Source: an uncultured bacterium
GTDB taxonomy: Bacteria > Omnitrophota > Omnitrophia > Omnitrophales > Aquincolibacteriaceae
NCBI GenBank assembly: GCA_964385615.1
Contig: CAYLPP010000004.1
Span: forward strand, 39,494 to 103,493
Length of the DNA stretch: 64,000 nt
Direction of reading: 5' to 3'
Below, in pieces: positions 5,596 through 41,549 of the stretch; position 1 is the first letter of the stretch, and each line of letters begins with the position of its first letter. Under the pieces are notes generated by a model. The model saw only the letters and a program-made list of their open reading frames with translations. It was not told the DNA's origin and searched no databases. A program made the position numbers and the translations under genes.

Positions 5596-5600
5596 TCCAA

Positions 5601-5858: not shown

Positions 5859-6056
5859 TTCTCGGCCAATCGGCCGATCCTCCCTTAGACATTCTTTTTA
5901 CACTTTCCACTTTAAAACCGTCTCCGCACGGTGTTCAGAAATTTTCCTAGCGGTATGATTCCCCCATGAAGCCGGTTTTGTTGAAAAAAATTCGCTGGGC
6001 AGCAATCGCCCTTTTTTTAGCAGGGGTTATCTGGCTGTTACATCAATGAGCGGATT

Positions 6057-6272
6057 TTAGAAATCCAGGAATTCTGAGCAGGTGAGATTAAAAGCTTTCG
6101 CGAGTTTCTCAATAGTTTCAAGCTTGACGTCCGTGGGGCGAGTGCTTTCGAGACGCTGGATGTGTTTGTAATCCAGTTCCGCGAGTTCGGCTAATTTTTG
6201 CTGTGTCCAGCCGCAGGTTTCCCGGAGGCTTCGAAGACGTTTCGCGAAATTATGACGGATTGAAATTTCCAT
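6057..6272 (-). CDS. XRE-family helix-turn-helix transcriptional regulator
   Basis: LRSLRETCGWTQQKLAELAELDYKHIQRLESTR is a classic Cro/C1 HTH; 71 aa. Confidence 0.8.
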   Translation of the reverse strand: MEISIRHNFAKRLRSLRETCGWTQQKLAELAELDYKHIQRLESTRPTDVKLETIEKLAKAFNLTCSEFLDF

Positions 6273-6397
6273 AAACGGGAATTATCGGGATTTAGAGGGT
6301 CCATTAACACCGTTTTCATGCGGTATTTCATGTTTGGAGTGGTTAAAGATGAATTTAGTCCAAAAGTGTGCGGACTAAGCACTTTTAAAGAGGCTTT

Positions 6398-6781
6398 ATG
6401 GCGGATTCGGCTAAACCCAGGGTTTTAGTCATTGATGACGAGATTGATGTGCTGTTGATGACCCGGGAGTATTTTGAACTTCGAGGCTATCAGGTTTTTA
6501 CGGCTCTTGACGGCGAGACAGGACTGCTGATTTGCCGTTATGAGAATCCCAAACTGGTTCTGGTGGATTATAAGCTCAAAACCTGTGACGGGGCTGAACT
6601 CATTCGGAGCTTAAGGAAAACATCAAACTCACTGAAAATTTTCGTGATTTCAGCGCATCAAGAAGAGAATATGGAGCGCCGGGTCACCGGGCTGGGAGCG
6701 GACAAGTATTTTGAAAAACCGGTTTCGATTATTGAAGTGGAGCGCGCGGCGCGTCAAATTTTAAATTTTCAGGCTTCCTGA
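6398..6781 (+). CDS. Stand-alone CheY-like response regulator receiver domain
   Basis: Has the receiver hallmarks: VLVIDDE acidic pocket, LVLVDYKL phospho-acceptor Asp, and conserved Lys in YFEKPV. It is 127 aa with no output domain. Confidence 0.8.
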   Translation: MADSAKPRVLVIDDEIDVLLMTREYFELRGYQVFTALDGETGLLICRYENPKLVLVDYKLKTCDGAELIRSLRKTSNSLKIFVISAHQEENMERRVTGLGADKYFEKPVSIIEVERAARQILNFQAS

Positions 6782-8472
6782 TTGATTCTCAACCCTTGAA
6801 CGGTCAAAGCCCATAAAACAACGGCCCCGGCGCAAAAGATCGTGCCCCGTAAGGGATGATTCAGCAAAAGGTCCAGAGGTCCGAAAGTGGTCAGAAGCAG
6901 GGCCGCTGTAGCGTAAAGCCAAAGCTTCAGGCTGGGAATCCAGTTGGACGGAACGCTTGAAACGGATTTCCAGAATCCGGGCGGACGGACTTTTGCCTGA
7001 AACGCGGTCAGAACGGAATCTTCGCAAGGTTTTGTCATGAAAGTCGCGGGAAGCCAGAAAGCCGCGGTGCCCGCAATCATAAAAATAAGATCCGCGACGG
7101 AAGATTCAGGAATGCCCGTGAATTCGAAAAAGAAAGGCCGGGCGAGAAGAACGGGAAGACTTGCTGCCATGGCCGCGATTTCACTCGCCGGATTAATTCT
7201 TCGCCAGAACCAGCGCAGAAAATAAACCGGGCCGATTCCCGCCGTCAGGTTTAAAACCAGGGTGAAGACGGCACCGATACTGTCGGTCATGAAAGCTACG
7301 GCCGTGGCCGCCGCGGCAAGAAGCAGGGAAGTCAGGCGCGCGACGGCAACGTAATGTTTCTCAGAGGCCCCCGGTTTAACGAACCGTTTCCAGAAATCAT
7401 TAACAAAATAAGAAGACCCCCAGTTTAAATGGGTGCTCATCGTGGACATGAATGCCGCGAAAAAGGAAGCCACCATTAATCCCCGAAGTCCTGAAGGTAA
7501 AAGCTGGGAAATCAGACGGGGATAAGCTTTTTCGTGATCGGTTAAGTCCGGAAGAAGAATCAGAGAAGCCAGGGCCGTTAGAATCCAGGGCCAGGCACGC
7601 AAGGCGTATTGGGCGATATTGAACCAGAGCGTCGCGTAAATGGCCTGCTTTTCATTTTTGCAGGAAGCAATTCTCTGAACAATAATTCCGCCTCCGTCCG
7701 TGTTTTTCCAGGCCCACCACTGAATGCAAATCAATCCCAGAAACCAGCCGAACGGAGAAGCTAAAATTTCTGAAGGCGTGTGCCCGGTCATGGGCGGGAT
7801 CAAAGCCAGTTTGCCGGTCGGGCCCAGTTTTTCCACAATCACATGAAGGCCGCCGCAGGCATTCACGGCGTAGAAGGCCAGAATAAAAGCTCCAGCCATC
7901 GCGACAATAAACTGAAACATATCGGTCAGAATAACGCCCCAGTAACCTGACATGCAGGAGTACGCGGCGGTTAGAGCCATGCAAAAAAGGACGGATTGCG
8001 CTTTATTCCACGAAGTGGTTTCCTGCATGACTTTAGACAGACCGGTGACCGGCCAGGCGCCCATGATAAACGCGTTATAAAAAATGCCCCAGTAAAGCGC
8101 TTTAAAGCCCCGCAGAAAAGCCGCAGATTTTCCGCTGTAGCGGAGTTCCACAAATTCGACTTCTGTCAGAACTCCGGCCCGTTTCCAGAGTTTTGAGAAA
8201 AAGAAAACCGCGAACATGGTAGAAATCGCCAGCGCCCAGACTTCCCAATTTCCCCAGATGCCTTTACGGCGCACGATGCCTGTGATTAGAAGCGGAGTGT
8301 CGGAGGAGAACGCGGTCGCGGCCATGGAAGTTCCGGCCAGCCACCAGCCCAGAGAGCGGTCGGAAGCGAAAAAGGATTCCATGCCCTTGCCGGCTTTTTG
8401 GGTCAGCAAAAGGCCGAGGGCGACACTGGCCAGGCAAAAACCGGCGACAATCAACCAGTCCAGCAGGCTCAT
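6769..8472 (-). CDS. Sodium:solute symporter (SSS/SSF) family transporter
   Basis: A 567-aa polytopic membrane protein with SSF-like N-terminal helices (MSLLDWLIVAGFCLASVALGLLL...GWWLAGTSMAATAFSSDTPL). Its start overlaps the anmK stop by 4 nt. Confidence 0.8.
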   Translation of the reverse strand: MSLLDWLIVAGFCLASVALGLLLTQKAGKGMESFFASDRSLGWWLAGTSMAATAFSSDTPLLITGIVRRKGIWGNWEVWALAISTMFAVFFFSKLWKRAGVLTEVEFVELRYSGKSAAFLRGFKALYWGIFYNAFIMGAWPVTGLSKVMQETTSWNKAQSVLFCMALTAAYSCMSGYWGVILTDMFQFIVAMAGAFILAFYAVNACGGLHVIVEKLGPTGKLALIPPMTGHTPSEILASPFGWFLGLICIQWWAWKNTDGGGIIVQRIASCKNEKQAIYATLWFNIAQYALRAWPWILTALASLILLPDLTDHEKAYPRLISQLLPSGLRGLMVASFFAAFMSTMSTHLNWGSSYFVNDFWKRFVKPGASEKHYVAVARLTSLLLAAAATAVAFMTDSIGAVFTLVLNLTAGIGPVYFLRWFWRRINPASEIAAMAASLPVLLARPFFFEFTGIPESSVADLIFMIAGTAAFWLPATFMTKPCEDSVLTAFQAKVRPPGFWKSVSSVPSNWIPSLKLWLYATAALLLTTFGPLDLLLNHPLRGTIFCAGAVVLWALTVQGLRINQEA

Positions 8473-9533
8473 CGTGTTATTTTTCCGAGGATAACAGCGT
8501 GTTTCGCGCCGGTGCCCGCGGGGCAGTGATTGACTTTGCCTTCCAGCGCCCGAAGAGCGAAAAAAGCGAACGCTGCAGGCTCCTTGGCTTGCGCCTCGAT
8601 ACCTGATTTTTCAATTGAGAGGACCGGAACGGGGGTCAGCAGATTTTTCAGGTGTTTCATCAGCGTAAGATTTAAAGCTCCGCCTCCGCTGACAAGGACT
8701 TCCCGAACCGGCGGGAGAAAAGCCTGGTAACTTTCCTTGATTGAAAACGCCGTGAAAAAAGTCAGGGTCGCCAGGATGTCCGCGGGTTTTTGCTTTTTAA
8801 GAGAAGCGGGAATAAAAGTCTCATTGAAAAGTTCACGGCCCGTGGATTTCGGCGGAAGTTTTTTAAAATAAGTATGCCTGGCCATGGCTTCCGCGGATTT
8901 AAAATCAATCTTACCTCCGGCCGCGATTTGACCGCCCTTGTCATAGTTTTTCTTGAAGTATTTTCGTGCCGCCCAATCCATGAGGCAGTTGCCGGGACCG
9001 GTATCAAAAGCGATCAGTTTTTTTCCGCCGGCCAGGGTGACATTTCCGATACCTCCGATATTTTGCAAAGCGCGCGGTTTATCTCCGAAAAAGAAGTCGT
9101 CAAAAAAGGGAATGAGCGGGGCCCCCTGACCGCCCGCAGCGATATCGCGGGGGCGGAAGTCCGAAACCACAGGGATCCCGGTTCTTTCAGCCAGATAAGA
9201 AGGTTCTCCGAGTTGAAACGTATGAGCGGGTTTTCCGGACCCGGCATGAAACACGGTATGACCGTGAGACCCGATGACTTTAATTTTTCGCCCAGGAAAT
9301 TTTTTCAGGAAACGGACCGCGCATTGAGCGAAATAAAGACCCAGTTCAGCGTTTAAGAGAGAAAGTTCCGGAGTCTTAAGATGGACGGCGCTGTTAATTT
9401 TTTTGGAAAGAGATGAAGGGTAAGGATAGGTGAGACAGCCCAGGGTTTTAAATTTGCGGCCGGTGAAATCGGCCAAGGCCAAAGACACTCCATCGCCGGA
9501 GGTGCCGGACATCAGGCCGAGAGCAAGCGTCAT
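8469..9533 (-). CDS. anmK: Anhydro-N-acetylmuramic acid kinase
   Basis: The N-terminus GLMSGTSGDGVSLAL and the ~354-aa ASKHA-fold size are typical of AnmK. Its start overlaps the murQ stop. Confidence 0.85.
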   Translation of the reverse strand: MTLALGLMSGTSGDGVSLALADFTGRKFKTLGCLTYPYPSSLSKKINSAVHLKTPELSLLNAELGLYFAQCAVRFLKKFPGRKIKVIGSHGHTVFHAGSGKPAHTFQLGEPSYLAERTGIPVVSDFRPRDIAAGGQGAPLIPFFDDFFFGDKPRALQNIGGIGNVTLAGGKKLIAFDTGPGNCLMDWAARKYFKKNYDKGGQIAAGGKIDFKSAEAMARHTYFKKLPPKSTGRELFNETFIPASLKKQKPADILATLTFFTAFSIKESYQAFLPPVREVLVSGGGALNLTLMKHLKNLLTPVPVLSIEKSGIEAQAKEPAAFAFFALRALEGKVNHCPAGTGAKHAVILGKITR

Positions 9534-10432
9534 TTTTCCAGAAGAGCTCTTTTAAGAAAACCGCGTGTTTTTTTCAGCGCGGCAACGGCTTTCGGGCGGG
9601 GCCATTTTTTACGGGCCATTAAAATAGCGACTTTCACCTTCTTGCCGGACTGCTTCAGATAAATTTCCGCCCGGTTTTCAGGAACCTGGCCCAAACGGCT
9701 GATCAGGCGCAGCGCGCGCGCCTCCAGTTTTTTGGACCGGGGCTGGAGGTCAACCATCCAGTTCTGGTAAACCTTTCCCAACTGGACCATGGTGCCGACA
9801 GTCAGCATATTCAGTACCAGTTTGGTCGCGGTGCCCGCTTTTAAACGAGTGGAACCACTGATGACTTCGGGGCCGGTTTTGACGGCGATCACGCAGTCAC
9901 ATAAATTTTTAAGCAGGGAGCCGTCCGCGCAGGTGACCAGAATCGCGGATGCGTTTTTTTCTTTCGCGGCTTGAAGCGCACCTTTAACAAAAGGAGTAAC
10001 CCCGCTTGCGGCAATGCCGACTAGAATATCCCCGGATTTCATTTTTTTGCGGAAAATTTCCAGCCCGTCTTCTAATTTATCTTCAGCGCCTTCCTTAGAA
10101 CGAAAAACCGAACTTTTTCCGCCCGCCATAACCGCCTGAATTAATGAGGGCGGGGTGTTAAAAGTCGGAGGACATTCCGCGGCTTCGAGAACGCCGAGAC
10201 GTCCGCTGGTGCCCGCGCCGGCAAAAAAGACGCGCCCGCCGTTTTTGACGGCTTTCACCATAAGTCCGACGCCCCTGGCAATTTGTTTGCGGGCTTGCGC
10301 GACTTTCAGAGGAACGCTCTGATCTTCACGGCTGATCAGTGTCAGGATCTTTTCTGTGGAAAGGGTGTCGATAGCGCGGGTGCGCGGGTTGGCCTGTTCG
10401 GTCAGCAATTTTCCGTAATTTACTTTTTTCAT
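9530..10432 (-). CDS. murQ: N-acetylmuramic acid 6-phosphate etherase. The start was chosen at MKKVNYG; the tabulated ORF extends to 10450.
   Basis: SIS-domain motifs (FFAGAGTSGRLGVLEAAECPPTF, GSTRLKAGTATKLVLNMLT) align with E. coli MurQ from memory. Confidence 0.85.
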   Translation of the reverse strand: MKKVNYGKLLTEQANPRTRAIDTLSTEKILTLISREDQSVPLKVAQARKQIARGVGLMVKAVKNGGRVFFAGAGTSGRLGVLEAAECPPTFNTPPSLIQAVMAGGKSSVFRSKEGAEDKLEDGLEIFRKKMKSGDILVGIAASGVTPFVKGALQAAKEKNASAILVTCADGSLLKNLCDCVIAVKTGPEVISGSTRLKAGTATKLVLNMLTVGTMVQLGKVYQNWMVDLQPRSKKLEARALRLISRLGQVPENRAEIYLKQSGKKVKVAILMARKKWPRPKAVAALKKTRGFLKRALLEK

Positions 10433-10453
10433 GCGGGGGCAGAATAGCATATA

Positions 10454-11974
10454 ATGCGCGCCATGTCCAAAGACCTCCGGGGCCTAGTCGGCGAACAAAT
10501 GATGATCGGCGTGGCAGGGCCGAAAATGACTTCCGCCATGAGAAAACTGGTCCGGAAAATCAGGCCGGGCGGGATTATTTTCTTCCGCCCGAATTTTGCT
10601 TCCGCCAAAGCTTTCCGTAAACTGGTTTCAGATCTTGAAGACGCCGCGGGTAAAAAATTAGTGACCGCGGTTGATCATGAAGGCGGCCGGGTCATTCATT
10701 TTAATGAGGGAGTTACGGTTTTCCCCGACAATCTGGCTGTCGGCAATACCCGCAAAGAAAAATACGCCGCCCAGCAGGGTGAAATCGAAGCCCTTGAGCT
10801 TAGAAAACTGGGGGTGACTCTGAATTTGGCACCCACCGCTGACGTGCTTCGTGAAAATTTCAGCCCGAATATCGGCATCCGTTCTTACGGTAAAGATCCC
10901 GGTCTGGTTTCCGCTTTTGGAACCGCGCGGATCAAAGCCATGCAGGCCGGGGGAATTTCGGCTTGCGCCAAACATTTCCCGGGGCAGGGGCAGTCGACCC
11001 GCGACGCGCATCTTGACCTGCCGGTTTTATTTTCAACCCATCAGGAAATGGAAAAAATTCACCTGGAGCCCTTTCGCGCGGCAATCAAGGCCGGGGTTCG
11101 CGCCGTGATGTCGTCGCATCCCATTTATCCGAATCTCGACAGAAAAAGACAGCCGGCCACATTTTCAAAAGAGATTATTACCGGACTTTTGCGGAACCGG
11201 CTCGGTTTTCAGGGCGCGGTTTTGAGCGATGATCTGGAAATGGGCGCTCTTAAAGGAATCTGCCCCATTGGTGAATCAGCCGTACGCGCAGCGGAAGCCG
11301 GGCATGATATGGTTTTGATCTGTCATGACGTCAAAGCGCAGGAGGAAGTTTTTGAAAGCCTGCTCAAAGCTTATGAAAGCGGGCGCCTCGATCCCTGGTC
11401 GCTTGAAAAGAGTCTTGTCAGAATTGACGCTCTGCGCCAAGAGGCACCGGCTCGAAGGGATGCTTCTAAAAAACACAATCGGGAATTTTCAGAAGCGCTT
11501 CCCTTGAAGATTTCAGAAGAAGGGGTCCTTCGGTCGGCGTCTCACGCGGGTTTCGGTTTTAAGAAAGGAGAGACGGTTTCGGCGGTCTTCCCGAAACTTT
11601 CCGAATTGGCGGGGCGTATCATGATTGAAAAAGAAATGCTGAACGAAAAAGCATTTGTGCTCGGGCTTTTCAAAGAGCGAGGCTGGAAACCCGGGGAGAT
11701 ACAAGTTCTTCCTTTAAAAATTTCCGGAAAGCTTCAGCCGGAAAAAAAGAAAAAAGCGGGCAGCGCTATTTTCTTTTGTTACGACGCGTATCTGGATGAA
11801 GGCACCCGTGTTTTTTTAAAGGAATTTCAGAAAAATTGGGAGAAGCCGGCCGTGGTTCTTCTGCGCGACCCTTATGACATTGATTTTATCGACAAGAAAA
11901 CCGCGTGCGTGACGGCTTTCGGTTTTCGTGCCTCTCAAATCCGCGCGGCTTTAAATTTATTGGTTCAAAAATGA
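10454..11974 (+). CDS. nagZ: Beta-N-acetylhexosaminidase, GH3 family (NagZ-like), with a C-terminal extension
   Basis: GH3 catalytic-region motifs KHFPGQGQSTRDAHLDLPVL and ILFRPNF. The 506-aa length is longer than the ~340-aa NagZ core. The exact start is uncertain (10454, 10463 or 10496). Confidence 0.8.
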   Translation: MRAMSKDLRGLVGEQMMIGVAGPKMTSAMRKLVRKIRPGGIIFFRPNFASAKAFRKLVSDLEDAAGKKLVTAVDHEGGRVIHFNEGVTVFPDNLAVGNTRKEKYAAQQGEIEALELRKLGVTLNLAPTADVLRENFSPNIGIRSYGKDPGLVSAFGTARIKAMQAGGISACAKHFPGQGQSTRDAHLDLPVLFSTHQEMEKIHLEPFRAAIKAGVRAVMSSHPIYPNLDRKRQPATFSKEIITGLLRNRLGFQGAVLSDDLEMGALKGICPIGESAVRAAEAGHDMVLICHDVKAQEEVFESLLKAYESGRLDPWSLEKSLVRIDALRQEAPARRDASKKHNREFSEALPLKISEEGVLRSASHAGFGFKKGETVSAVFPKLSELAGRIMIEKEMLNEKAFVLGLFKERGWKPGEIQVLPLKISGKLQPEKKKKAGSAIFFCYDAYLDEGTRVFLKEFQKNWEKPAVVLLRDPYDIDFIDKKTACVTAFGFRASQIRAALNLLVQK

Positions 11975-23692: not shown

Positions 23693-26600
23693 ATGAAAAA
23701 ACGGGACGGCAGACTCGTAAGGAAAACAAGCGCGGCCATTACGGCCGCGTGTTTTATCGCCCAACAGATTTTTGCACCCGCTGTTTCTTCTGCCTCCGAA
23801 GTTCAGGAAAGCAGTCTCCGAGTTCCCTCAATTGAAATTCCCGCTGAAATAGGTTCCCTTGAAACCTCAGGGATTTTAGAAGATCAAAAGCCCATGATTA
23901 TTCAGGTTCAGGACGCTCACGGAAATTATGACGCTCAGAAAAATATTCAAAAAATTCTCCAGCATCTTACCGCCTATGAAGGCGTCGACCTTGTTTTGCT
24001 CGAAGGCGGAAAAGGCCCGCTTCATCCCGAAATCCTGAATTTTTTACCAAGACGTCCTGATTTGAATCTGGAAATCGCCGACCGTCTGGCTCAGCAATCT
24101 GAACTGAGCGGAGCGGAGATTTTTCTTCTAGACCGGTATTTGGCGGGGAAGACTCTTGCCGCATTTGGGATTGAAAACGCTCCGGCTTACCGGGAGAACC
24201 GTGAAGCTTTTCAAAAAGTTCTGCGCGCCCGGGAGCAAAGCGGAAATTTCTTAAAAGATATGGAAATGCAGATTGACCGCCTGACGGCGCCTCATGTGAA
24301 TCCTCAGCTCAAAAATTTTCTGCGCAGTTATGAAGCTTATGAATCACGGCAGATGGATTTGACGGTATGGCTCCGCCAGCTTGAGGAGCTTTCACGCAAG
24401 CACTTGGGCTTGGACCTGGATTTAGCCGGAAGTCAGAAAGACTGGCCGATGCTCACCCGGTATTCCCGCCTGCGTAAACTCGAACCCAAACTTGATAAAA
24501 CGCGTGTTGAAAACGACAAAACGGCGATGCTTCAAAAACTTAGGTCGCTCAATGTTTCTAAAGCGGTGATTGAGGCTTTTGACAATGCCGTGAATATGGC
24601 CCCGGATAACGGTGTTCAGGCTTCTCAAATTGTGAAAGCTGTTGAGAGTGTGATGGAAGCGGTTCCTTCCGATTTTTCTTTTGAACCCTATGGGTTCCTG
24701 AAAGCTTGGATTCAGTTTGAAGTTTTTCAGCGTGAGCTTAATGGAGAAGCTTTATTCGCGGAGGTCAGCAAACTGGAAGATCTTCTCTCAAATCAGCTGG
24801 CCAGAACCGAAACCGAGAAAAAACTTCTGGCCCTCTTTAAAGATTACCGTGCTCTAAACAAACTTTTCGCTCTCGAACTTACCCGGGAAGATTATCAGAA
24901 TATCCAGCGTTCTGAGGACACGATGACGCCTTCGGCCATCGCCGGACGGTTTTCAGCGGTCAATAAAAACAAGCAGGTCCGCGACACGCAGTTTATTCAT
25001 TTAAAAGAACTCGACGCTCTTTATTCGCTCGCGCTTAATTTTTACCGCGGAGCGCTTGACCGCGATCATTTGATGGCGGACAACATTTTGGAAACTATGC
25101 AGGCGCAGGGGAAGCGCCGGGCGGTTGTTGTGACCGGCGGGTTTCATTCAGAAGGAATGCAGGAATACTTTCAATCCAAGGGTTTTTCTTACGCGCGGAT
25201 CAGCCCGCGAATTCAGGAGCTGGGTGACAACAAAGCTTATATCCGGGCAATGCTGGATGAAGATGTTGAAATTAAAAAATCGCAGGTCGCGGATATCCTG
25301 GTGGAACAATTCGGGGAAGTTCAGCTGGAGCTGGGGAGCGCCAGCCACTTAACCCGCAAGGACGCAGTCATTTACCGGGTCATGCGGGATGTCGTTGAAC
25401 ACGCGGGCGCGCGCTCAGAAATGCGCGGACGGCGTGATTGGATTTACGGTATCGGGCTTGTGACCGCGATCGGTTTAGCGGCTTATGCCGCGTTTAGACC
25501 CTTGCCTGTCAATCCGCCGGCTCAGCAGGATGTGCCTGCAAAAGTCGCGGAGCTAGAACCTAAACCGGTTCAGCAGGAGAAGAAGGTTGAAGAAAAAAAG
25601 CCCGCTCCGATTCCTGAAGTGGTGCCGCTGCCTCAGCCTGAAAAGAAAGCTCCAATTGTTAAAATAGATGAGCCTGTGATTGATAAGGCCGAAACGCTCC
25701 GTGTTTGGGGTAAGCGGGAAGTGCCTAAAATTTCTCCTGAAAAACTCGAGGCTCTTGTCACTTCAGATTTAAACGCGGAACAGATCCGGTATTTGCTGAA
25801 ATACGATAAGCGGTCGAAACAGCTTGAGTCCGCGGGAGCGGGAAAAAACACGGTTTGGAGTATTGAAGCCGGTGTCCGTCATATTACAGAAGCTAAGCTG
25901 AATAAGGCGGAGAAGGCGGAGTTTGAAGCGACGAAAGGCGCGATTGAAGAGTTTTTGAAAGAACTGAAAGAAGACGGCGCTTTTAAAGAAGGGCAGACCG
26001 CTCTGGATCTTTATTACTTTTTCTTCCGCCCGCTTTTTGTGGTGCAGGACCGTCATGGAGCTGCCGCCGCGAAGTGGGTGGTAGAAATGCAGATTGCTTA
26101 CTTTACGGTTAAGAATAATTTTGAGATCAACCTGAAAGGGTTAACTGAAAAATCTTTGAGCGCGACTTATATCCGCACCATTGAGGACTATCTGAATGCT
26201 GATGAGTGGAAAGCTAACGGCGGGGAACGGTTAAAAATCGCGTTCGCGCTTTCTATTTTATACGCGCAGATGGATAATTATAAACAGGTGATTTGGCGTA
26301 ATCACGACTGGTCAAAATTCAAAAGGCTTGAGCTTCCGGCTGAACTCGAACTCTACCGCTTTTACGGCGAAAAAGGGCTCGGCAAAGATGCGTTGGAACG
26401 CATGGAGCTCGAACTTAAAGCTGAAATCCGCGGCCCCAGACCCCTGGGAAAAAATAATGCCTGGAACAACCGCCCGAATCTCCCCCAACGTTATGTCGGC
26501 CTTTACGAAGAAGTTTATTCCAGGACCTGGTATTACTCGACCATGCACCGTGAGCGTTTTTACCGGCCCGGAGATTTCCGCCTCGGAGCGACTCCGAATC

Positions 26601-29600
26601 CCTGGTTCCCGACGCATACGCTGATGTACTTCCATATTTCCAGAATGGATTGGGTCCAGAAACGCGCTTCGGATGTAACGGGTGTGAGCCGTGAACCCTA
26701 TTTCATCGCGCCGGTGGCGATCCAGCTGCCCAGCGACAACATCCGCAAAAACAAATTTCCGATTATTATTCCAGCACGCCCGGACGCTGTCTGGGGCGCG
26801 ATGGGGCTCGGCGATAGAAGCAGTCAGCGGGCTGAAGATATTTTCAGTTTTCATCTTTCCAATCCTTCCGCTTGGAAGCCGGGTGAAAAAGACGAGCTTC
26901 AATATCTCGATCAGGTTTTTGACGCGGCAAAAATGAAAGATTTCAGTAAGCAGTTCCGCGCATTATGGGACAGCGGAAAAGTCCGGAAATTGTATGTCCA
27001 GGATTACGGAGAATTTCTGGTGGATGATTTCCTCAAGAAGTTCATTGACCAGAATTATTTTGACGTTTTCAACGGTCAGCTGAAAGGAAACGAAAAGTAT
27101 TTTGATGATCTCGCGAAGGCTTTGAGGACGCAATATCCGAAACTTCCTTACGATTATCAGGTTTATCTTCAAATTCCTCTCCTTCGCTATGAGGCCGGGA
27201 AAAATCTCAAGCTGGATGATGATTATATGGCGTATCTCCGCGCGGATCTTTACCAGTCCGCGGCTCAGCTTGCCCGGGATATCTATGTCAACAACACGCA
27301 GGCGCTGATCGGCTCAGCTTACCGGCAGGGAATTTATGACACTCCGGGCGTCTTAGCGTATGTTGAACGGCACATTATTTTCCGGCCCATGGTTGAAAAG
27401 CTTCTAGGCCGTGAGCTTGTTCTCTCAGACCCTCACTCGAACGATTCGGGGCGTCTGTCCGCGTTCGTTAATGAAATTTACAAAAGAGATATTGATCCGG
27501 ACATCTGGTATCTGATTACCCGCTATACGCTTGAAGAATCCACGCAAAAAAGTGCGCTGGAATTTTACAACGCCGTGATGGGTACTGAATTAACTTCTTT
27601 GGGGCTTAACGATAAAGACGAAAAACTCGCGGCGGTCCGCTTCGGGGTTCTGCTTTCGTACGCGGCCGAGGACATTCTTCACCCGGGCCGGATGGAGAAA
27701 ATAAAAACGTTCTTAAAAACACCGGCGATGCGCCGTAAAGCTGTCGAGTTTGCCATCCGCACGCGCGGGGCATTTAGAAGTGAGCCTGATCTTACGGGAG
27801 ATGACTTAAAACGCGCCGCTGACGCGCTTGAAAAAGATCTTTTGGAGCAGAAAAACTCAGAAGCCCTTGTGCGCTACACCGGCTACTTGATCGGGCAGGC
27901 CCGGACCGCTGTTTTGAAAGACGTTCTGGATAGCGATGAAAATTTTAAGGAGTGGGTGGAATTGACGGACGCTTTGATTAAGGTTCTTGATCCGCGAGCG
28001 CCTAAAAAACGTTCCGAAGCGCGGGCGGTTTCCCGGGCGCCGGAATCTTTCGAGGCTGATTTTATCGAAGCTTTTTTAAATTCAAAGTTAATGGATTTAA
28101 CGGATCGTGAGAGGGTTGTTTTTACGAGACGGTTCGCCGAAAAGAAAAAGGTGAATGAAATCGCGGCGGAATTGAAAATTGCCGGGCCTGCTGTTTCCAA
28201 GGTTATCGCGAGTCTCCAGCTGAAAACGGATTATTTCTCGGTGAATATTTACGGCAAGCCTTTGCTCGATCCCCGCAAGCTCAATGAGCTCCCCGTGGAA
28301 AGGGTCGGATACCTTGATCAAAAAACCCTGACAGCCTGGAAAGGCAGGGGGATTAATAATTTGAAGGACTTGGTGACACGAATGCCTGAACTTCTGGATG
28401 ATCCCCAGAAAACAGGACCGGCGCTTAAAATAGTTTCCCAATACCTGATCGCTTTGGGAGTGAATCTTAATCTGGGATTGATTATGGATCTTACCCCTGA
28501 AGCTTCGTCCGCGCTGGAAGCTATGACTCTTCAGGAATATTTGGTTCAGGAAAACGCATACCAACTGCTTTTGAGAGTTCAAGCGGTTCAAGACCCTCTG
28601 TTTTTACCGCAAAAGAAACGTGAGGAAAGACCGGGTAAATTAAGACAGCTTGGAGTGAATACGGTCGGCGACCTTCTTAAGGTCGGGCTTGATGCGTTCA
28701 GACAGGCGGGATTTACCTCTTCCGACATTAAGTTAATCGCGGCGGTTTTAAAAGTTCAGCCGGCAGGAACAAGCGCCCGCTCAGAACTCCGCTCGGAAGA
28801 AACGAAACCGGAAGCCCAAGGCAAAGCTGTACCGGTACGGTCCGAAGTTCTTCAAAGAGTCCGGAGTCTCAAGACTGATGAGGTGGAAAAGTTAACGACG
28901 GAAGATCTCGCTGGAATCGTTCGTGAACTTGTGGAGAGCGGAATTTTAAAGGATTACGAAGGGCTTCAAGTGCTGTTAACGTTGTTTTCTGCGGGCCCGG
29001 CGACTGGGAAAGGCGCTTTGATGAGCGCGACTTTTCTGGCTGAAGAAGAAGGAGAAATCGCCCCCTATCAAGATCTGGTGGATAAATTCGTTCTTTTTCA
29101 CACCCGCGCTCCGCGAGTGGATAAAAAAGGAAGATCGGAAAAGAACGGAAGAGCTTACTATTTCGTGAAAACGGAAGATTTAAAACAGTTGGCGGCGGAA
29201 CTTGGCGAAGATGTTCTGGTCGTTCGGGAAATCAACCGGGAAGTTCAGGCGCTCGCGCGTAAAAATTTCACACTGCCTCATGTCGAAGTCGGGGAGGTCA
29301 CCGGTTCTGGACAGCTTCAGCCGGGCGATCTTGTCGTGAGCTTCGATGCTTCCCAGGGGCTTTTAGTCATTCAGCGCGGGGAATTCACGATTCCTCTGAC
29401 GGGGGTGACCATTCCTGAAGGCTCTGCGGGGTATTTTTTAAATGGGGATAAAATTGAAAAAGTTGAAGGGCCGGCGGTCTATGTAAGCCGGCAGATTAAA
29501 GGGATTGAAGAAACGTTTAAGAGCGGAAAGCTGACCATTCTTGAAGGCGGTTATGAATGGTTCAAATGGGTTAAAGAGCATTATCCGGAAGTTCTGACCA

Positions 29601-30937
29601 TGTTTTTATCGCCTTTCCGCGAACCCGAATTCGCCGTGCGTGCCCAGAATTTGGCATGGATCCGGGAAAACTTTTCAACCCCTGAAGATATTTACGCGGC
29701 TTTTGAAGCGATGACGGATTTGATTAAAGCCAATAAAGGTGAAATTTCCATTCCTTCGTCAACGGGCTATCAGGCGGCTATAAAAGCCAAGGTTGATTCC
29801 AAACCTGCGATTCCGCCTGTGCTGGCCGAAAACACCGCGGTCATTCTTAATGACGCTGATTTTATCGCTGAACTCAATCAGCTTCGGAGCCGTTTTGGAA
29901 AGCCTTCGCTGAAGCCGGAAGATTACGATTTGGCCCGGGCCCTGGCCTTTGAAGTTCAGAGGAGGCTTTTCGGCCGTGATGGGGTGAAGGCGTTTCGTGT
30001 CGGCGGGGAAAGAAGCAATCCTTACGACCGGATTTTAGAAGGAACCTTGCAGATTCTGGACCGGAATTCCGATTACGGCGCTGAAAACGTTCTTCCGAAT
30101 CCTTTTGGGTACACGGAAGACGAGAAAAGTAAAAACATTAATGAGTTGAGCGATCAGTTCGCCCGGCGTGTTTTCCTGCACGTTGTGGAAGGTCTTCGCC
30201 GGTCAGAGATCAGAAATAATCCGGCGGATATTACCGCGGTATCCCTGCTTGAAGGCAAACCGGGGACGCCTTCAGAATTATTAGTTCAGGCTCCGGTTGG
30301 GATTTCACCGCGGAAGACTTTGCGCGCGGTCCAAATCGTTACTGAGGTTTTTGATGGAATTGCGCCTACGGCTGGAATTCTCGGCATTTCGGCGGAAGTT
30401 CTGATTGACCGGATATCTGCCGGTGAAAGCGGAAAGGTTTCACCGTGGGTGCCGTTTACCGATGAACAAAGAAAACAGCTGAGCGGAGTGCTGGGAATTC
30501 GCGGGCATGGAACTCAAGCAAATGTTCTGATTACTGAACCCGTCGCTGGTATTGATAATGGCCTGCTCGCTTTACTCGGTGAAGCTGGAGAAGGCGTTCT
30601 GGTTATTTTGGTGGGCGCGGATGATCAGCAGAAGCGTATCGTCGCTGAAATGAATAAAGAATTAAAAGCCGTGAAGCGTCAAGAAATCCGGCTGGCTAAA
30701 GATACGGTCGAAGCCCGGAAGATCGCGGATCAATACACTAAGGGAAAAACCGTGATGCGGGCGTATGTCGACGTTTCAATGGTAGGCCGGTACGGTACGG
30801 CGCTGCGTAAACAGCTTGCGGATGTTATCCCGATGACTCCCAGAATGTACGAGAATATGAAGCAGGGGTTTGCCGCGGCGGCAGCCCGCCTGACGGCTTT
30901 CTTCGAAATCAGCAAACGGATCAAATCCGCGGCATAA
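23693..30937 (+). CDS. Giant multidomain protein (2414 aa), called giant 2 below, a paralog of giant 1. Its parts are a signal peptide, a TraB/GumN/Tiki-like N-domain, a TM helix with a Pro/Lys-rich linker, a sigma70-r4-like HTH, two RNAP alpha-CTD-like HhH domains, and the shared C-terminal domain.
   Basis: A single 7.2-kb ORF preceded by an AGAGG ribosome-binding site. Its N- and C-terminal regions align clearly to those of the upstream giant. Confidence 0.85.
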   Translation: MKKRDGRLVRKTSAAITAACFIAQQIFAPAVSSASEVQESSLRVPSIEIPAEIGSLETSGILEDQKPMIIQVQDAHGNYDAQKNIQKILQHLTAYEGVDLVLLEGGKGPLHPEILNFLPRRPDLNLEIADRLAQQSELSGAEIFLLDRYLAGKTLAAFGIENAPAYRENREAFQKVLRAREQSGNFLKDMEMQIDRLTAPHVNPQLKNFLRSYEAYESRQMDLTVWLRQLEELSRKHLGLDLDLAGSQKDWPMLTRYSRLRKLEPKLDKTRVENDKTAMLQKLRSLNVSKAVIEAFDNAVNMAPDNGVQASQIVKAVESVMEAVPSDFSFEPYGFLKAWIQFEVFQRELNGEALFAEVSKLEDLLSNQLARTETEKKLLALFKDYRALNKLFALELTREDYQNIQRSEDTMTPSAIAGRFSAVNKNKQVRDTQFIHLKELDALYSLALNFYRGALDRDHLMADNILETMQAQGKRRAVVVTGGFHSEGMQEYFQSKGFSYARISPRIQELGDNKAYIRAMLDEDVEIKKSQVADILVEQFGEVQLELGSASHLTRKDAVIYRVMRDVVEHAGARSEMRGRRDWIYGIGLVTAIGLAAYAAFRPLPVNPPAQQDVPAKVAELEPKPVQQEKKVEEKKPAPIPEVVPLPQPEKKAPIVKIDEPVIDKAETLRVWGKREVPKISPEKLEALVTSDLNAEQIRYLLKYDKRSKQLESAGAGKNTVWSIEAGVRHITEAKLNKAEKAEFEATKGAIEEFLKELKEDGAFKEGQTALDLYYFFFRPLFVVQDRHGAAAAKWVVEMQIAYFTVKNNFEINLKGLTEKSLSATYIRTIEDYLNADEWKANGGERLKIAFALSILYAQMDNYKQVIWRNHDWSKFKRLELPAELELYRFYGEKGLGKDALERMELELKAEIRGPRPLGKNNAWNNRPNLPQRYVGLYEEVYSRTWYYSTMHRERFYRPGDFRLGATPNPWFPTHTLMYFHISRMDWVQKRASDVTGVSREPYFIAPVAIQLPSDNIRKNKFPIIIPARPDAVWGAMGLGDRSSQRAEDIFSFHLSNPSAWKPGEKDELQYLDQVFDAAKMKDFSKQFRALWDSGKVRKLYVQDYGEFLVDDFLKKFIDQNYFDVFNGQLKGNEKYFDDLAKALRTQYPKLPYDYQVYLQIPLLRYEAGKNLKLDDDYMAYLRADLYQSAAQLARDIYVNNTQALIGSAYRQGIYDTPGVLAYVERHIIFRPMVEKLLGRELVLSDPHSNDSGRLSAFVNEIYKRDIDPDIWYLITRYTLEESTQKSALEFYNAVMGTELTSLGLNDKDEKLAAVRFGVLLSYAAEDILHPGRMEKIKTFLKTPAMRRKAVEFAIRTRGAFRSEPDLTGDDLKRAADALEKDLLEQKNSEALVRYTGYLIGQARTAVLKDVLDSDENFKEWVELTDALIKVLDPRAPKKRSEARAVSRAPESFEADFIEAFLNSKLMDLTDRERVVFTRRFAEKKKVNEIAAELKIAGPAVSKVIASLQLKTDYFSVNIYGKPLLDPRKLNELPVERVGYLDQKTLTAWKGRGINNLKDLVTRMPELLDDPQKTGPALKIVSQYLIALGVNLNLGLIMDLTPEASSALEAMTLQEYLVQENAYQLLLRVQAVQDPLFLPQKKREERPGKLRQLGVNTVGDLLKVGLDAFRQAGFTSSDIKLIAAVLKVQPAGTSARSELRSEETKPEAQGKAVPVRSEVLQRVRSLKTDEVEKLTTEDLAGIVRELVESGILKDYEGLQVLLTLFSAGPATGKGALMSATFLAEEEGEIAPYQDLVDKFVLFHTRAPRVDKKGRSEKNGRAYYFVKTEDLKQLAAELGEDVLVVREINREVQALARKNFTLPHVEVGEVTGSGQLQPGDLVVSFDASQGLLVIQRGEFTIPLTGVTIPEGSAGYFLNGDKIEKVEGPAVYVSRQIKGIEETFKSGKLTILEGGYEWFKWVKEHYPEVLTMFLSPFREPEFAVRAQNLAWIRENFSTPEDIYAAFEAMTDLIKANKGEISIPSSTGYQAAIKAKVDSKPAIPPVLAENTAVILNDADFIAELNQLRSRFGKPSLKPEDYDLARALAFEVQRRLFGRDGVKAFRVGGERSNPYDRILEGTLQILDRNSDYGAENVLPNPFGYTEDEKSKNINELSDQFARRVFLHVVEGLRRSEIRNNPADITAVSLLEGKPGTPSELLVQAPVGISPRKTLRAVQIVTEVFDGIAPTAGILGISAEVLIDRISAGESGKVSPWVPFTDEQRKQLSGVLGIRGHGTQANVLITEPVAGIDNGLLALLGEAGEGVLVILVGADDQQKRIVAEMNKELKAVKRQEIRLAKDTVEARKIADQYTKGKTVMRAYVDVSMVGRYGTALRKQLADVIPMTPRMYENMKQGFAAAAARLTAFFEISKRIKSAA

Positions 30938-36926: not shown

Positions 36927-36964
36927 TCCGGAAGGCGATGTTCCGCCTGGATAGAGGAGATTTC

Positions 36965-37738
36965 ATGAAAAAAATTTTCCCCGCGCTTCTCATTCTGGCT
37001 GTTGCTTTTTCGGGATGCTTTAAGAAAAAAGACCGTATTTCTCCTGAAGAGGAAAAAGCCGTGAACGCGGTTCTCGCGCATTGGGAGACTTGGGTTCCCT
37101 CCCGTCAAAAAGCCGGAACAGCCCCTCTTTTAACTTTTGAGGAACTTTATGCCGGTTTAGCGGATGACGGAAAAAATTTTCTCGATAAAATCCGGGCTTT
37201 GAAGCCCGGAGGAGTGTTTCCGGATCCCCAAAAAACTTTTCTGGCCCGTATTGACGGTCAAAAGCTTGAGCGCGGAGGAAAACCCGTGACGATCGACACG
37301 CAATATCTTCCCACGGAAGTTTACAGCGCGCTTCGGGTGATGCTCACGGAGATGCAGAAAGATTTGGGAAAGCAGCTTCTTGTTGAATCCGGCTACCGCT
37401 CACCGGCCTACCAGCTTTATCAGTTTGTTTTTTATATGCCCAAGCACGGCTATTCCATTTCTGAAACGAACCGCTGGGTCGCTCTCCCGGGGCACAGTGA
37501 ACACGGCAATCCCGCGCGTCAGGCCGTCGATTTTATTAATATGCAGGGGATTAACGGCGATGATAACGGCCAAACTGCGGAAACATTTGAAAAGCTTCCG
37601 GAATATGACTGGCTTCAGCGCCGGGCGGGAGAATTTGGATTTGAGTTGTCCTATCCCAAAGGCAAGAAAGACACGGTTTTTGAGCCCTGGCACTGGCATT
37701 ATGCCGGAGAAAGCGCCGCTCCTTCCAATAAAGCATGA
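36965..37738 (+). CDS. Lipoprotein of the peptidase M15 (VanY/D,D-carboxypeptidase-like) family
   Basis: Lipobox LAVAFSGC. M15 zinc-site motifs are SGYRS, H..G.A.D (SEHGNPARQAVDF) and EPWHWHY. Confidence 0.7.
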   Translation: MKKIFPALLILAVAFSGCFKKKDRISPEEEKAVNAVLAHWETWVPSRQKAGTAPLLTFEELYAGLADDGKNFLDKIRALKPGGVFPDPQKTFLARIDGQKLERGGKPVTIDTQYLPTEVYSALRVMLTEMQKDLGKQLLVESGYRSPAYQLYQFVFYMPKHGYSISETNRWVALPGHSEHGNPARQAVDFINMQGINGDDNGQTAETFEKLPEYDWLQRRAGEFGFELSYPKGKKDTVFEPWHWHYAGESAAPSNKA

Positions 37739-39558: not shown

Positions 39559-40383
39559 ATGGGTATGCGAAAAAAGATACGTCTAATAGGGGTTTTGGCC
39601 CTTTCTATTCTGTGGCTGACCGCTCCGGCCCCCGCAGCCCGGGCCGAAGAAAGTTTGCCTTCCAGCCGGGATTTTTCGCCTTCCAACGTAGCCCGGTTAC
39701 GCGAGCTTAAAGAGAAAGACCCTCAGGCGTTTGAGGCTTTTGTCAGCGAGAGAAAGCAGCAGGTTAAATCCCGGTTCCGGGAAATCCGGAAAAATGATCC
39801 CCAAAAATATCAGGACCTCAAGCAAGGAGTTGTGGAAAACCGGATGCGGCGTCTGCGCGGGATGCGCCGGGACAATCCTGAAAAGTTTCGGCAGGTCATG
39901 GGGGAGAGAGTTCAAAAGTTCGAGAAAGTTAAAAGGGAAAACCCTGAGCGCTACAGGAATTTCATTGGAAATCATCCCCGATTTGAAGACCGGATGCAAA
40001 AGATACAGCCTTTCAAGGATCGGCCGGAGGGCGGTCGTCCAGGATTGAATCGTCTTCCAACCGCATCGCAACCGGAAGCTCACGGGCCTGAAAGCCGGCC
40101 CGGTTTACGTGAGAATACCCGTGAAAATGTAAAGGCTCCCAGACCGCCTCAGGCTGAATTTAAAAATAACCAGGGACCGGATTTTAAACGCCAGAATCCG
40201 GAACGGCAGATGAATCCCCGTAGCGAACCCGGAAACGGCCCAAGGGTCAATGGGCTGAATTCCCGTCCGCAGGCTGGGCAGGGGCCCGGCCCAAGAGGCG
40301 GAGTTTTAAGATCCCAAAATCAGCCCCCCCGAAACGCGGGAGGAGGTCCCGGTGGCAGCCGCAGAAGCCGGAATCGATCCTGA
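39559..40383 (+). CDS. Secreted repeat protein with periodic NPE[KR][FY]R-type repeats and a Gly/Pro/Arg/Asn-rich tail
   Basis: Signal peptide MRKKIRLIGVLALSILWLTAPAPAARA. The repeats KDPQAF, NDPQKY, DNPEKF and ENPERY recur at roughly 20-aa spacing. Confidence 0.5.
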   Translation: MGMRKKIRLIGVLALSILWLTAPAPAARAEESLPSSRDFSPSNVARLRELKEKDPQAFEAFVSERKQQVKSRFREIRKNDPQKYQDLKQGVVENRMRRLRGMRRDNPEKFRQVMGERVQKFEKVKRENPERYRNFIGNHPRFEDRMQKIQPFKDRPEGGRPGLNRLPTASQPEAHGPESRPGLRENTRENVKAPRPPQAEFKNNQGPDFKRQNPERQMNPRSEPGNGPRVNGLNSRPQAGQGPGPRGGVLRSQNQPPRNAGGGPGGSRRSRNRS

Positions 40384-40963
40384 AGTTTTAGCCGCCCGGG
40401 CGCGCCAGGGGGATACCCTGGCTTTTTCGCGTTTAGTGGAGCTCTATGAAGAGAAGGCCATTCATACGGCTTACGCTTTCCTGGGGAACATGGAAGACGC
40501 GCGTGACGCGGCGCAGGAAGCTTTTGTGAAGGCGTACCAGGCACTGGGTTCTTTTAAAGGAAATAGTAAATTCTCGACCTGGCTGATCCGGATCGTTGTC
40601 AATCAATCGAAAGATGTGCTGAGAAAAAAGAAAACCCGGAATTTTTTTAACTGGATTCCTTCCGGAGAAGCGGAAGAAAAAGACCCGATTCAGAATCTGG
40701 AATCCAAATCGCCCGATTCCCGCAAACAGCTTCAGAACCGTGAAATCGATCAAGCGGTGCGCGAAGCGGTTGAGAAACTGCCGGGTCAGCAGAAAAGTGT
40801 TTTTACACTGCGTTATCTGGAAGGCATGAGTCTTGAAGAAATTGCCCAGGTCCTGGACTTAAGCACGGGAGCGGTCAAAGCCCACTTGTGGCAGGCCGGG
40901 CAAAAAATGAAAAAAAGTCTCCAGCCCTGGATGGCCGGAGCGGAGGTGGACCGTGGAATCTGA
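40352..40963 (+). CDS. ECF-type RNA polymerase sigma-70 factor
   Basis: Region 2 (FSRLVELYEEKAIHTAYAFLGNMEDARDAAQEAFVKAY, WLIRIVVNQ) and region 4 (LRYLEGMSLEEIAQVLDLSTGAVKAHL). Confidence 0.8.
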   Translation: MAAAEAGIDPEVLAARARQGDTLAFSRLVELYEEKAIHTAYAFLGNMEDARDAAQEAFVKAYQALGSFKGNSKFSTWLIRIVVNQSKDVLRKKKTRNFFNWIPSGEAEEKDPIQNLESKSPDSRKQLQNREIDQAVREAVEKLPGQQKSVFTLRYLEGMSLEEIAQVLDLSTGAVKAHLWQAGQKMKKSLQPWMAGAEVDRGI

Positions 40964-41549
40964 AATGTTTGATAAGCTTGACCGTGATTTAATGAAAGGA
41001 CTCCAGACCCTGCGTGAAAAGCCGGTTCCGCAAGAAATTCGCAGAAATTTCCGCCGGTCGGTAGAAGAAAGAATTCTAGAGATCGGAAGGCCCCCGCTTT
41101 TTTCATGGCAGACGGCGTTGATTCCGGCGGCGGTATTGGTCCTTGGACTGGCTTTAATCGTGCTTTTTGTGAAACCCAGGCCCGTGACGGTATCTCCGCA
41201 GATGAAAGAAGCCCCGGCGGTGATCCGCGAAACCGCGAAGTCTGAGGTGAAAATTCTGGCGCCCGCTTTGCCTATGCCCTCAGAGGTTAAACGCGAAGTT
41301 CAGGTGGACCGGGAAATTCAAAACCAGAACCCGCAAACACAGGCTGCTGTTGTCAGTGAAAGCGATTTGCTTAGCGAGATTGAAACACTCAAAGAACTTG
41401 GGGTCTGGACGGACGAGGATGAAGAAGAAATTGGAATTTCCTCAGATCAGATTTTTGAAGAGCTGGAGATTCTGATGGGGGAATCGGCGCAAACCGGTGT
41501 TTCTCCAGACGGTTCCGGGGCTCCTGCCGGACAAGTCGGTCAGTTTTAA
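40953..41549 (+). CDS. Putative anti-sigma factor (single-pass membrane protein)
   Basis: It overlaps the sigma gene by 11 nt and has one TM helix (ALIPAAVLVLGLALIVLF) separating an N-terminal cytoplasmic part from a C-terminal part. Confidence 0.5.
   Translation: MESEMFDKLDRDLMKGLQTLREKPVPQEIRRNFRRSVEERILEIGRPPLFSWQTALIPAAVLVLGLALIVLFVKPRPVTVSPQMKEAPAVIRETAKSEVKILAPALPMPSEVKREVQVDREIQNQNPQTQAAVVSESDLLSEIETLKELGVWTDEDEEEIGISSDQIFEELEILMGESAQTGVSPDGSGAPAGQVGQF

Follow-up and report, generated by a model that had tools for sequence, protein, structure and literature searches.

A swappable sigma region 4/helix-hairpin-helix cassette, predicted to be a DNA- or RNA polymerase-binding adaptor, in a modular giant protein of an Omnitrophota bacterium

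What is a domain resembling region 4 of sigma-70 factors doing in the middle of a 2414-residue protein that appears to be anchored in the membrane? This question is raised by a 64,000-nucleotide stretch of DNA from an uncultured bacterium of the Omnitrophota (contig CAYLPP010000004.1, positions 39,494 to 103,493), here called the window, which carries two giant genes, giant 1 and giant 2. The original prediction on this DNA had seen, at 28097-28760 on the forward strand, a sigma70-region-4-like helix-turn-helix (HTH) followed by two helix-hairpin-helix (HhH) domains like the C-terminal domain of the RNA polymerase (RNAP) alpha subunit (alpha-CTD). The peptides that it quoted lie in frame exactly there and correspond to amino acids (aa) 1469-1689 of giant 2 (LTDRERVVFTRRF...AAVLKVQ). 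We consider it somewhat probable (about 0.55) that this region belongs to an accessory cytoplasmic cassette of a modular Omnitrophota giant, built from sigma region 4 (sigma-4) and a double HhH fold, (HhH)2, and predicted to serve as a DNA- or RNAP-binding adaptor. Both folds are already known; their fusion and their swappable placement inside a membrane-anchored giant are not described in the literature searched.

The HTH of giant 2 follows sigma-70 region 4 in the same register, with L-T-x-R-E-R-x-V-F-x-x-R-F, then x-x-E-I-A-x-x-L and then the recognition helix, and the region 4.1 helix is also present upstream. With the hidden Markov models (HMMs) of Pfam that had been proposed as a check, the fragment reached E 1.1e-3 and 18.9 bits for Sigma70_r4 (PF04545; 15.7 bits in the full protein), below the gathering cut-off of 24.1 bits, and E ~0.05 each for Sigma70_r4_2 and GerE, both likewise sub-threshold. 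In NCBIfam, the models sigma70-ECF (extracytoplasmic function; E 5.7e-5), Sig70_bacteroi1 (6.4e-5) and SigB/F/G (2.9e-3) were matched, and the sigma models aligned to the HTH solely at their C-terminal region 4 part. The ECF sigma factor encoded in the same window (40352-40963) supplied an authentic region 4 from this genome as a positive control, and against it the HTH gave a Smith-Waterman z of 6.2, with 2 of 5000 shuffles equalling the score. A phmmer search of PDB sequences with the giant 2 fragment returned nothing meaningful. A profile built from the giant 2 module and its single relative, P0121, retrieved from the PDB sequences almost only region 4 of sigma70, SigA and RpoS, with a best E of 0.007. 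Sigma-4 structures were also among the Foldseek matches, with non-significant E-values.

P0121, a protein of 2762 aa encoded at 62-8470 of locus L001 (JGI contig Ga0105164_10001365), was the sole relative of the module in an exhaustive phmmer search of 1.84 billion representative proteins (E 2.5e-4; query residues 19-294 aligned with P0121 1211-1503). The same search recovered P0001, a protein identical to giant 2 from a 215-kb NCBI contig, at E 1e-208. The module of P0121 (LTRKERKVLQGRI...EEIGRELVGGVRTRARVQQIEAQALQKA) shares 27-33% identity with that of giant 2. Taken alone, this fragment exceeds the Pfam cut-off for Sigma70_r4 (25.8 bits, E 7.4e-6), which full-length P0121 does not reach (21.1 bits). 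Its NCBIfam matches are mostly to the C-terminal ends of sigma-factor models (RpoH, RpoD, RpoS, SigC and others, best E 1.1e-6), and against E. coli sigma70 aa 528-613 it scored 84 by Smith-Waterman, compared with 25.7 ± 4.9 for shuffles (z 12, 0/5000). The motifs PxxRxGYL and GIxxLxDL and the hydrophobic core positions are invariant between the two modules, and the proteins otherwise share nothing; P0121 lacks the family head, a signal peptide and a transmembrane (TM) helix, and contains 12 R[SA]EVR motifs and HEAT repeats. Judged from these comparisons, the HTH proposed in the original prediction is supported as a genuine, diverged sigma region 4 that includes the region 4.1 helix.

The cassette is rare, with two copies in about 1.8 billion representative proteins. 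No relative of the module was found in GTDB genome contigs, IMG/VR or the phage collection, a scan of JGI metagenomes gave the contig of P0121 alone, and a profile run locally over the 121 collected giants gave no additional copy. Neither the 339-aa fragment nor the two-sequence profile gave a match in a word-index search; the search missed the identical P0001 too, and we read this outcome as a limit of the tool and not as evidence. In P0121, the cassette additionally includes SITSAAAKLGVSQPWL, an HTH-like stretch located ~30 residues before its region 4.

Sigma70 reads the -35 element with Arg, Glu and Gln residues of its recognition helix (R584, E585, R588 and Q589). Since the corresponding core in giant 2 (AGPAVSKVIASLQLK) reads AGPAVSKVIA instead of the TRERIRQIEA of sigma70 (TRERIRQIEAKALRKL), the giant 2 copy is unlikely to read a -35 element in the manner of sigma70; P0121 (TRARVQQIEAQALQK) retains TRARVQQIEA. 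Pfam matches to Sigma70_r2 or Sigma70_r3 were found neither in giant 2 nor in P0121, including the part of P0121 upstream of region 4. Giant 2 is not a sigma factor because neither region 2 nor region 3 is detectable in the two proteins. The giant 2 copy differs from an ordinary sigma-70 region 4 also in its position in the middle of a long polypeptide and in its score below the gathering cut-off.

The domain that follows the HTH had been likened to the alpha-CTD. Aligned with the E. coli alpha-CTD, it gave a Smith-Waterman score of 51 over 66 columns spanning the domain, while shuffled sequences scored 26 ± 4.9 (z 5.1). This score was equalled once in 2000 shuffles and, in a larger set, 5 times in 5000, and the resulting p-value is optimistic because the target was chosen after the sequence had been seen. 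AlphaFold2 (AF2) modelling of the whole cassette gave a predicted local distance difference test score (pLDDT) of 45. When the input was trimmed to sigma-4 and the first HhH domain, pLDDT was 51 overall and 60-83 for residues 81-140 (aa 1527-1586), an improvement confined to the HhH part. In the models, the first HhH domain would adopt a compact (HhH)2 fold superposable on a solved alpha-CTD structure. Foldseek matches of the whole-cassette model were led by the alpha-CTD 9dvt_A (target-normalised TM-score 0.61, 2.8 Å, 56 columns) and sigma-4 domains, none of them significant, and those of the trimmed model by thumb domains of Y-family DNA polymerases (probability up to 0.96, 20-24% identity over 59-70 columns).

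Neither HhH fragment of giant 2 matches RNA_pol_A_CTD (PF03118; gathering cut-off 23.8 bits) or any other Pfam family, even at E 10. The P0121 module reached E 0.032 and 14.4 bits with RNA_pol_A_CTD, under the cut-off, E 0.17 with IMS_HHH_1 and E 0.093 with DNA polymerase IV in NCBIfam, and weak Pol IV sequence matches for the module appeared in Pfam, NCBIfam and PDB sequences. Against the thumb of E. coli DinB, z was 0.2 for the first HhH domain of giant 2 and 4.6 for the HhH domain of P0121. At the 265 determinant of the alpha-CTD (R265, N268, G296, K298, S299), the weak Smith-Waterman alignment of giant 2 has Lys in place of R265, a G296 loop displaced by one position and no equivalent of K298; P0121, judged by eye from its alignment with giant 2, has Arg at the R265-homologous site. 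The giant 2 domain differs from an alpha-CTD by some 8 extra residues in the helix that precedes the GI hairpin, by its flanks, which are the sigma-4 HTH and a helical linker instead of the alpha N-terminal domain, and by missing the family HMM threshold, as P0121 does too. The Y-family thumb (DinB/Dpo4; Pfam IMS_HHH) is the structural likeness that leads the Foldseek matches of the trimmed model; giant 2 lacks the palm, fingers and little finger of such polymerases. Neither RNA_pol_A_bac nor RNA_pol_L, which would mark an alpha N-terminal domain, was matched in giant 2, and we do not regard the protein as an alpha subunit. The (HhH)2 fold of the first domain is confirmed, but not its identification as an alpha-CTD in particular: the alpha-CTD is the best single match and is not separable from other HhH families. 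The domain belongs to the fold class that comprises the alpha-CTD, the Y-family thumb and the N-terminal domain of RAD51, the latter two fitting nearly as well as the alpha-CTD.

The second alpha-CTD-like copy that had been proposed is only weakly supported. The element at aa 1646-1688 (RPGKLRQLGVNTVGDLLKVGLDAFRQAGFTSSDIKLIAAVLKV) was modelled by AF2 as four short helices forming two hairpins, with pLDDT 48-59; its Smith-Waterman comparison was not significant with the alpha-CTD (p 0.3) and gave z 3.5 with the DinB thumb. It contains another G-h-x-[TNSH]-h-x-D-h motif, GVNTVGDL, comparable with GINNLKDL of the first HhH domain and GIQTLQDL of P0121, and also with AIHYIGDL (alpha-CTD) and GLRTCGDV (DinB). 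This pattern, which was defined after the sequences had been inspected, has 7 occurrences in the family proteins (335,626 aa; 0.021 per 1000 aa), of which 3 fall within the modules of giant 2 and P0121. The element has no counterpart in P0121, in which RAEVR comes right after the first HhH domain. The motif and the DinB comparison suggest that it is plausibly a shortened, degenerate HhH pair.

Is this module what giant 2 is built around? Comparison with its nearest relatives indicates that it is not. By BLASTP, P0002-P0004 (55-56% identical) align with giant 2 aa 1-1457 and 2213-2414 and not with aa 1458-2212. The insert of about 760 aa in giant 2 is absent from P0003 and P0004 and is replaced by other cargo in P0002. 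In P0003, the tail comes straight after the body and the motif KRSEAR (...VIKALAPAKRSEARLAAPEVSAQSPEARLVIEIFEGIIP...); at the same place the cassette begins in giant 2 (...LIKVLDPRAPKKRSEARAVSRAPESFEADFIEAFL...), and in P0002 KRSEMR (...LIKLLAPKKRSEMRSIQQSEYKIDF...) is followed by different cargo, whose precomputed Pfam list includes WD40 and DUF218. Because the nearest relatives lack the insert or replace it, the module is accessory cargo; its borders and its absence from these relatives show it to be a swappable cassette. Within the insert, the sigma-4/HhH cassette (aa 1445-1695) is followed by a second, guanylate kinase-like P-loop cassette (aa 1701-2169). The latter matched NCBIfam guanyl_kin (E 3.4e-4, module aa 63-136) and PRK14737 (E 5.5e-3, 231-284), both far below threshold, and is interrupted by an insertion of about 95 aa.

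The same exchange is seen between the two adjacent giants of the window, which are paralogues. The heads of giant 1 and giant 2 are 36.5% identical and their last 180 aa, better conserved than the head, 58.9% identical, and the cargo of giant 1 (HATPase_c, PEP-utilizers_C and UPF0489) is wholly unlike that of giant 2. The family to which they belong gave 166 matches at E ≤1e-5, most of which cover about 20% of giant 2, namely the N-terminal head; among the matches listed, only P0002-P0004 and P0035 reach past aa 650 of giant 2. Most of the named matches are from Candidatus Omnitrophota/Omnitrophica. The head that characterises the family, a conserved N-terminal stretch of some 500-570 aa preceded by a signal-like segment, is present in giant 2, and in other members the equivalent positions are filled by dozens of unrelated enzyme cassettes.

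The borders of these cassettes are marked by a short peptide, R-[SA]-E-x-R. Giant 2 has R-S-E-x-R at aa 574, 1440, 1696 and 2170, that is, where the head ends, where the insert begins, where the cassette ends and just before the tail, and giant 1 has the motif five times (aa 616, 1219, 2327, 2634 and 3119). In the first 60 relatives, RSE.R was counted 265 times where shuffling predicts 3.0 (~90-fold enrichment), and R[SA]E.R has 9 occurrences in the 5753 aa of both giants and none in the 39 other open reading frames (ORFs) of the window, which total 13,756 aa. The motif brackets whole domains: the hexokinase of P0037 (1202-1645) lies between motifs at 1197 and 1649, HATPase_c of giant 1 ends at 1219, where a motif starts, and the HAD, HEAT and UDPGP domains of P0024 and P0033 are located between motifs, never across them. 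The codons of the motif vary synonymously and its flanks are unconserved. The synonymous variation implies a signal at the peptide level and rules out a DNA-level repeat at the junctions. We regard R-[SA]-E-x-R as a candidate processing or docking site. The motif is not mentioned in the giant-protein papers 10.1101/2023.11.21.568195 and 10.64898/2026.06.07.730766, and a literature search on the motif strings returned only alginate lyase papers and unrelated abbreviations. Unknown cleavage points have kept giant proteins from being split by domain for structure prediction (West-Roberts et al. 2023, 10.1101/2023.11.21.568195), and the motif offers a concrete candidate for module borders or processing sites in the long proteins of Omnitrophota.

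Giant 2 starts with a positively charged N terminus, a hydrophobic stretch and SSASE, and contains one TM-like segment at aa 583-601. If the signal peptide is cleaved and the protein crosses the membrane once, the head would be outside and everything after aa 601 in the cytoplasm. The sigma-4/HhH cassette is therefore probably cytoplasmic, a placement with which the topology scan, the lack of a signal peptide and TM helix in P0121 and the kinase-like neighbouring cassette agree. The original prediction of a membrane protein with a TraB-like head holds as far as the signal-like stretch and the TM-like segment are concerned; the head matched the ChaN model of the Tiki superfamily (Pfam Cofac_haem_bdg) only below threshold (E 4.5e-4). 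The description of the protein as apparently secreted does not suit the HTH, which lies C-terminal of the TM helix and is thus predicted to be cytoplasmic. In the family, an N-terminal hydrophobic stretch is found in 60 of 68 members and a TM-like segment after the head in 8 of 68. Giant 1 presents a puzzle of its own in this respect: it has no TM helix after the head, yet its ATP- and phosphoenolpyruvate-dependent domains are expected to work in the cytoplasm.

Taken together, the proposed order of giant 2 is signal peptide, Tiki/ChaN-like head, R-S-E-x-R, TM helix, body, R-S-E-x-R, cassette 1, R-S-E-x-R, cassette 2, R-S-E-x-R and tail, where cassette 1 would comprise the sigma-70 region 4 HTH (regions 4.1 and 4.2), the (HhH)2 domain and the shorter, degenerate HhH pair. 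HTH and HhH folds bind double-stranded DNA, HTH in the major groove and HhH at the backbone, and both are classic protein-contact surfaces of RNAP. Cassette 1 may act as an adaptor that binds nucleic acid, RNAP or a regulator, tethering the giant scaffold to DNA or RNAP. Alternatively, if the R-S-E-x-R junctions were cleaved, the cassette would be released as an HTH-HhH protein of about 28 kDa.

Several observations weigh against this adaptor reading. All HMM scores of the giant 2 HTH, concordant as they are, remain under the curated thresholds, and its recognition helix lacks R584, E585, R588 and Q589. AF2 placed the helices of the sigma-4 part where expected, at pLDDT below 50 in both models, and both models were built on a two-sequence alignment. 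The best Foldseek E-value of the trimmed model was 0.43, none being significant. The comparison of the two-sequence profile with a single E. coli alpha-CTD sequence by hhalign gave a probability of about 1%; a genome scan with the E. coli alpha-CTD had yielded only 91-100% identical sequences and so no usable alpha-CTD profile. The isoelectric point (pI) of the module, 9.1, is uninformative, as are net charge and pI of the sub-domains. The topology of giant 2 was derived from hydropathy alone, and most family members, giant 1 included, have a signal peptide without a TM helix, which would place their cassettes outside the cytoplasm.

The rival explanations read the same features differently. 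For chance resemblance, with neither a sigma-4 nor an HhH domain in giant 2, one could invoke the matches below curated thresholds and the non-significant Foldseek E-values; the transitive homology through P0121, which passes the Pfam cut-off and reaches z 12 against sigma70 region 4, and the shuffle tests make this highly improbable, and for the HTH it is effectively refuted. The cassette could instead be a decaying or structural relic, a captured sigma-4/HhH fragment that is a mere spacer in a fast-evolving cargo region. Such a fragment would be expected to look much as this one does in part, with two known copies at 27-33% identity, giant 2 under every HMM threshold, a degenerate recognition helix, a truncated second HhH element and low AF2 confidence. 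We nevertheless find it unlikely, since the ORF is intact, PxxRxGYL, GIxxLxDL and the core positions are invariant in two otherwise unrelated copies, and the R-S-E-x-R borders are as clean as those of functional enzyme cassettes. The original prediction had itself suggested a membrane-tethered transcription regulator of the ToxR/CadC type at a very large scale, in which the exported head would sense and the HTH control promoters. ToxR and CadC have an N-terminal OmpR-type winged helix by the TM helix, then a C-terminal periplasmic sensor. Giant 2 does combine, in one polypeptide, a head predicted to be exported with one TM helix and a probably cytoplasmic HTH of a DNA-binding type. The model fails on three counts: relatives do without the cassette, its HTH belongs to the sigma-4 and not to the OmpR class, and the domains come in the opposite order (signal peptide, head, TM helix at 583-601, ~850 aa, HTH at 1467-1510). 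The nearest relatives keep the head, TM helix, body and tail but not the HTH cassette, and dozens of unrelated enzyme cassettes occupy equivalent positions in the family. No OmpR-type winged helix (Trans_reg_C) was found in giant 2 by Pfam or NCBIfam, the HTH shares its insert, about 850 residues from the TM helix, with an unrelated kinase-like cassette, and the only other copy of the module resides in a giant that lacks head, signal peptide and TM helix. We therefore do not take giant 2 for a ToxR/CadC-type regulator and consider such a role quite improbable.

A mimic or decoy of RNAP, also raised by the original prediction, deserves separate weighing. Sigma-4 and the alpha-CTD are the RNAP elements touched by most activators, anti-sigma factors and Spx-type regulators, and the cassette contains precisely these two, a sigma-4 fold and a fold of the alpha-CTD class. 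Their surfaces might bind the beta flap or regulators, and not DNA, perhaps after release at R-S-E-x-R and possibly in another cell. The loss of the DNA-reading residues with retention of the hydrophobic pattern in giant 2 would fit such a role, the peptide at the cassette borders could be a processing site, and Omnitrophota have been proposed to be predatory or parasitic, with cleavage of their giant proteins also proposed (West-Roberts et al. 2023, 10.1101/2023.11.21.568195). P0121, however, retains the DNA-reading residues in TRARVQQIEA, specificity for the alpha-CTD is not established when the Y-family thumb and the RAD51 N-terminal domain fit nearly as well, and the cassette, predicted to be cytoplasmic, shows no sign of cleavage or export. 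We hold the decoy to be unlikely. A more elaborate picture is that of a cargo train, in which R-[SA]-E-x-R is processed or docked and the ~28-kDa unit of sigma-4 and (HhH)2 mimics the promoter-proximal face of RNAP; this is speculative, and we would give it little credence. If it were true, the cassette would be a natural sigma-4/alpha-CTD chimera interfering with transcription, which would occupy -35/UP-type DNA or capture factors that dock on sigma-4 or the alpha-CTD, in the producer, its prey or its host.

For the adaptor that we prefer, binding of DNA or RNAP by the cassette would tie the Omnitrophota giants to transcription or to chromosome tethering. The main value of the cassette is that it exposes an architecture of Omnitrophota long proteins, with conserved head and tail, interchangeable cassettes and a sharp R-[SA]-E-x-R junction. 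Toxins of the MARTX type have conserved ends, swappable central effector cassettes and inter-domain processing. By analogy, giant 1, giant 2 and P0002-P0004 resemble them in sharing conserved ends and interchangeable cassettes split by a short conserved peptide. They differ in that the giants have no sequence relation to these toxins, no cysteine protease domain was found in them, their cassettes are enzymes of a housekeeping type instead of toxins, and cleavage is putative. With the multi-enzyme giants described from Omnitrophota (10.1101/2023.11.21.568195; 10.64898/2026.06.07.730766), the family of giants 1 and 2, comprising more than 160 long proteins, likewise shares a signal peptide and/or TM helix and a mixture of metabolic and signalling domains. 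Those papers mention neither the sigma-4/HhH cassette nor the head-body-tail architecture, and giants 1 and 2 (2.4-3.3 thousand aa) are far smaller than the classes of at least 10 thousand aa on which they focus. The features of the two giants are collected in Table 1.

Table 1. Features of giant 1 and giant 2, in window coordinates
Feature	Position	Strand	Remarks
Giant 1, 3339 aa	13448..23467	+	Paralogue of giant 2; same head and tail, other cassettes
Giant 2 ORF, 2414 aa	23693..30937	+	7245 nt; carries the sigma-4/HhH module
N-terminal signal-peptide-like segment	23693..23797	+	MKKRDGRLVRK, hydrophobic stretch, SSASE; read from the sequence by eye
Conserved family head	23789..25411	+	Weak likeness to the Tiki/ChaN/TraB superfamily
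Junction motif RSEMR, aa 574-578	25412..25426	+	End of head
TM-like helix WIYGIGLVTAIGLAAYAAF, aa 583-601	25439..25495	+	Kyte-Doolittle 1.67 over 19 residues
Conserved body, aa ~650-1439	25640..28009	+	Common to P0002-P0004; no Pfam match
Junction motif RSEAR, aa 1440-1444	28010..28024	+	Insert starts here
Sigma-70 region-4-like HTH (regions 4.1 and 4.2), aa 1447-1520, core HTH ~1467-1510	28031..28252	+	HMM and Smith-Waterman
First (HhH)2 domain, aa 1527-1600	28271..28492	+	Like both the alpha-CTD and the Y-family polymerase thumb
Helical linker, aa 1601-1645	28493..28627	+	AF2 helices, pLDDT <40; no family match
Possible second, shortened HhH pair, aa 1646-1688	28628..28756	+	GVNTVGDL motif, Smith-Waterman, AF2
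Junction motif RSELR, aa 1696-1700	28778..28792	+	End of sigma-4/HhH cassette
Second insert cassette, guanylate kinase-like P-loop module, aa 1701-2169	28793..30199	+	GPATGKG; HTRAPRV...YYFV; large insertion inside
Junction motif RSEIR, aa 2170-2174	30200..30214	+	Precedes tail
Conserved C-terminal tail, aa ~2213-2414	30329..30934	+	Common to P0002-P0004

The giant genes sit among ordinary chromosomal genes. Upstream are a permease gene and, right before the giant genes, a cluster for peptidoglycan recycling at 8469-11974 (AnmK, a MurQ-like SIS protein and a GH3 NagZ-like enzyme), and downstream are genes for BipA, a 2-oxoacid:ferredoxin oxidoreductase, VanY (a D-Ala-D-Ala carboxypeptidase of the VanY type at 36938-37738), the ECF sigma factor, GlpX, AsmA and SufBD. 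The ECF sigma factor at 40352-40963 is canonical (Sigma70_r2 60.8 bits, r4_2 57.6 bits), and its end is overlapped by an ORF of 198 aa (40953-41549) without a Pfam match, which may encode an anti-sigma factor.

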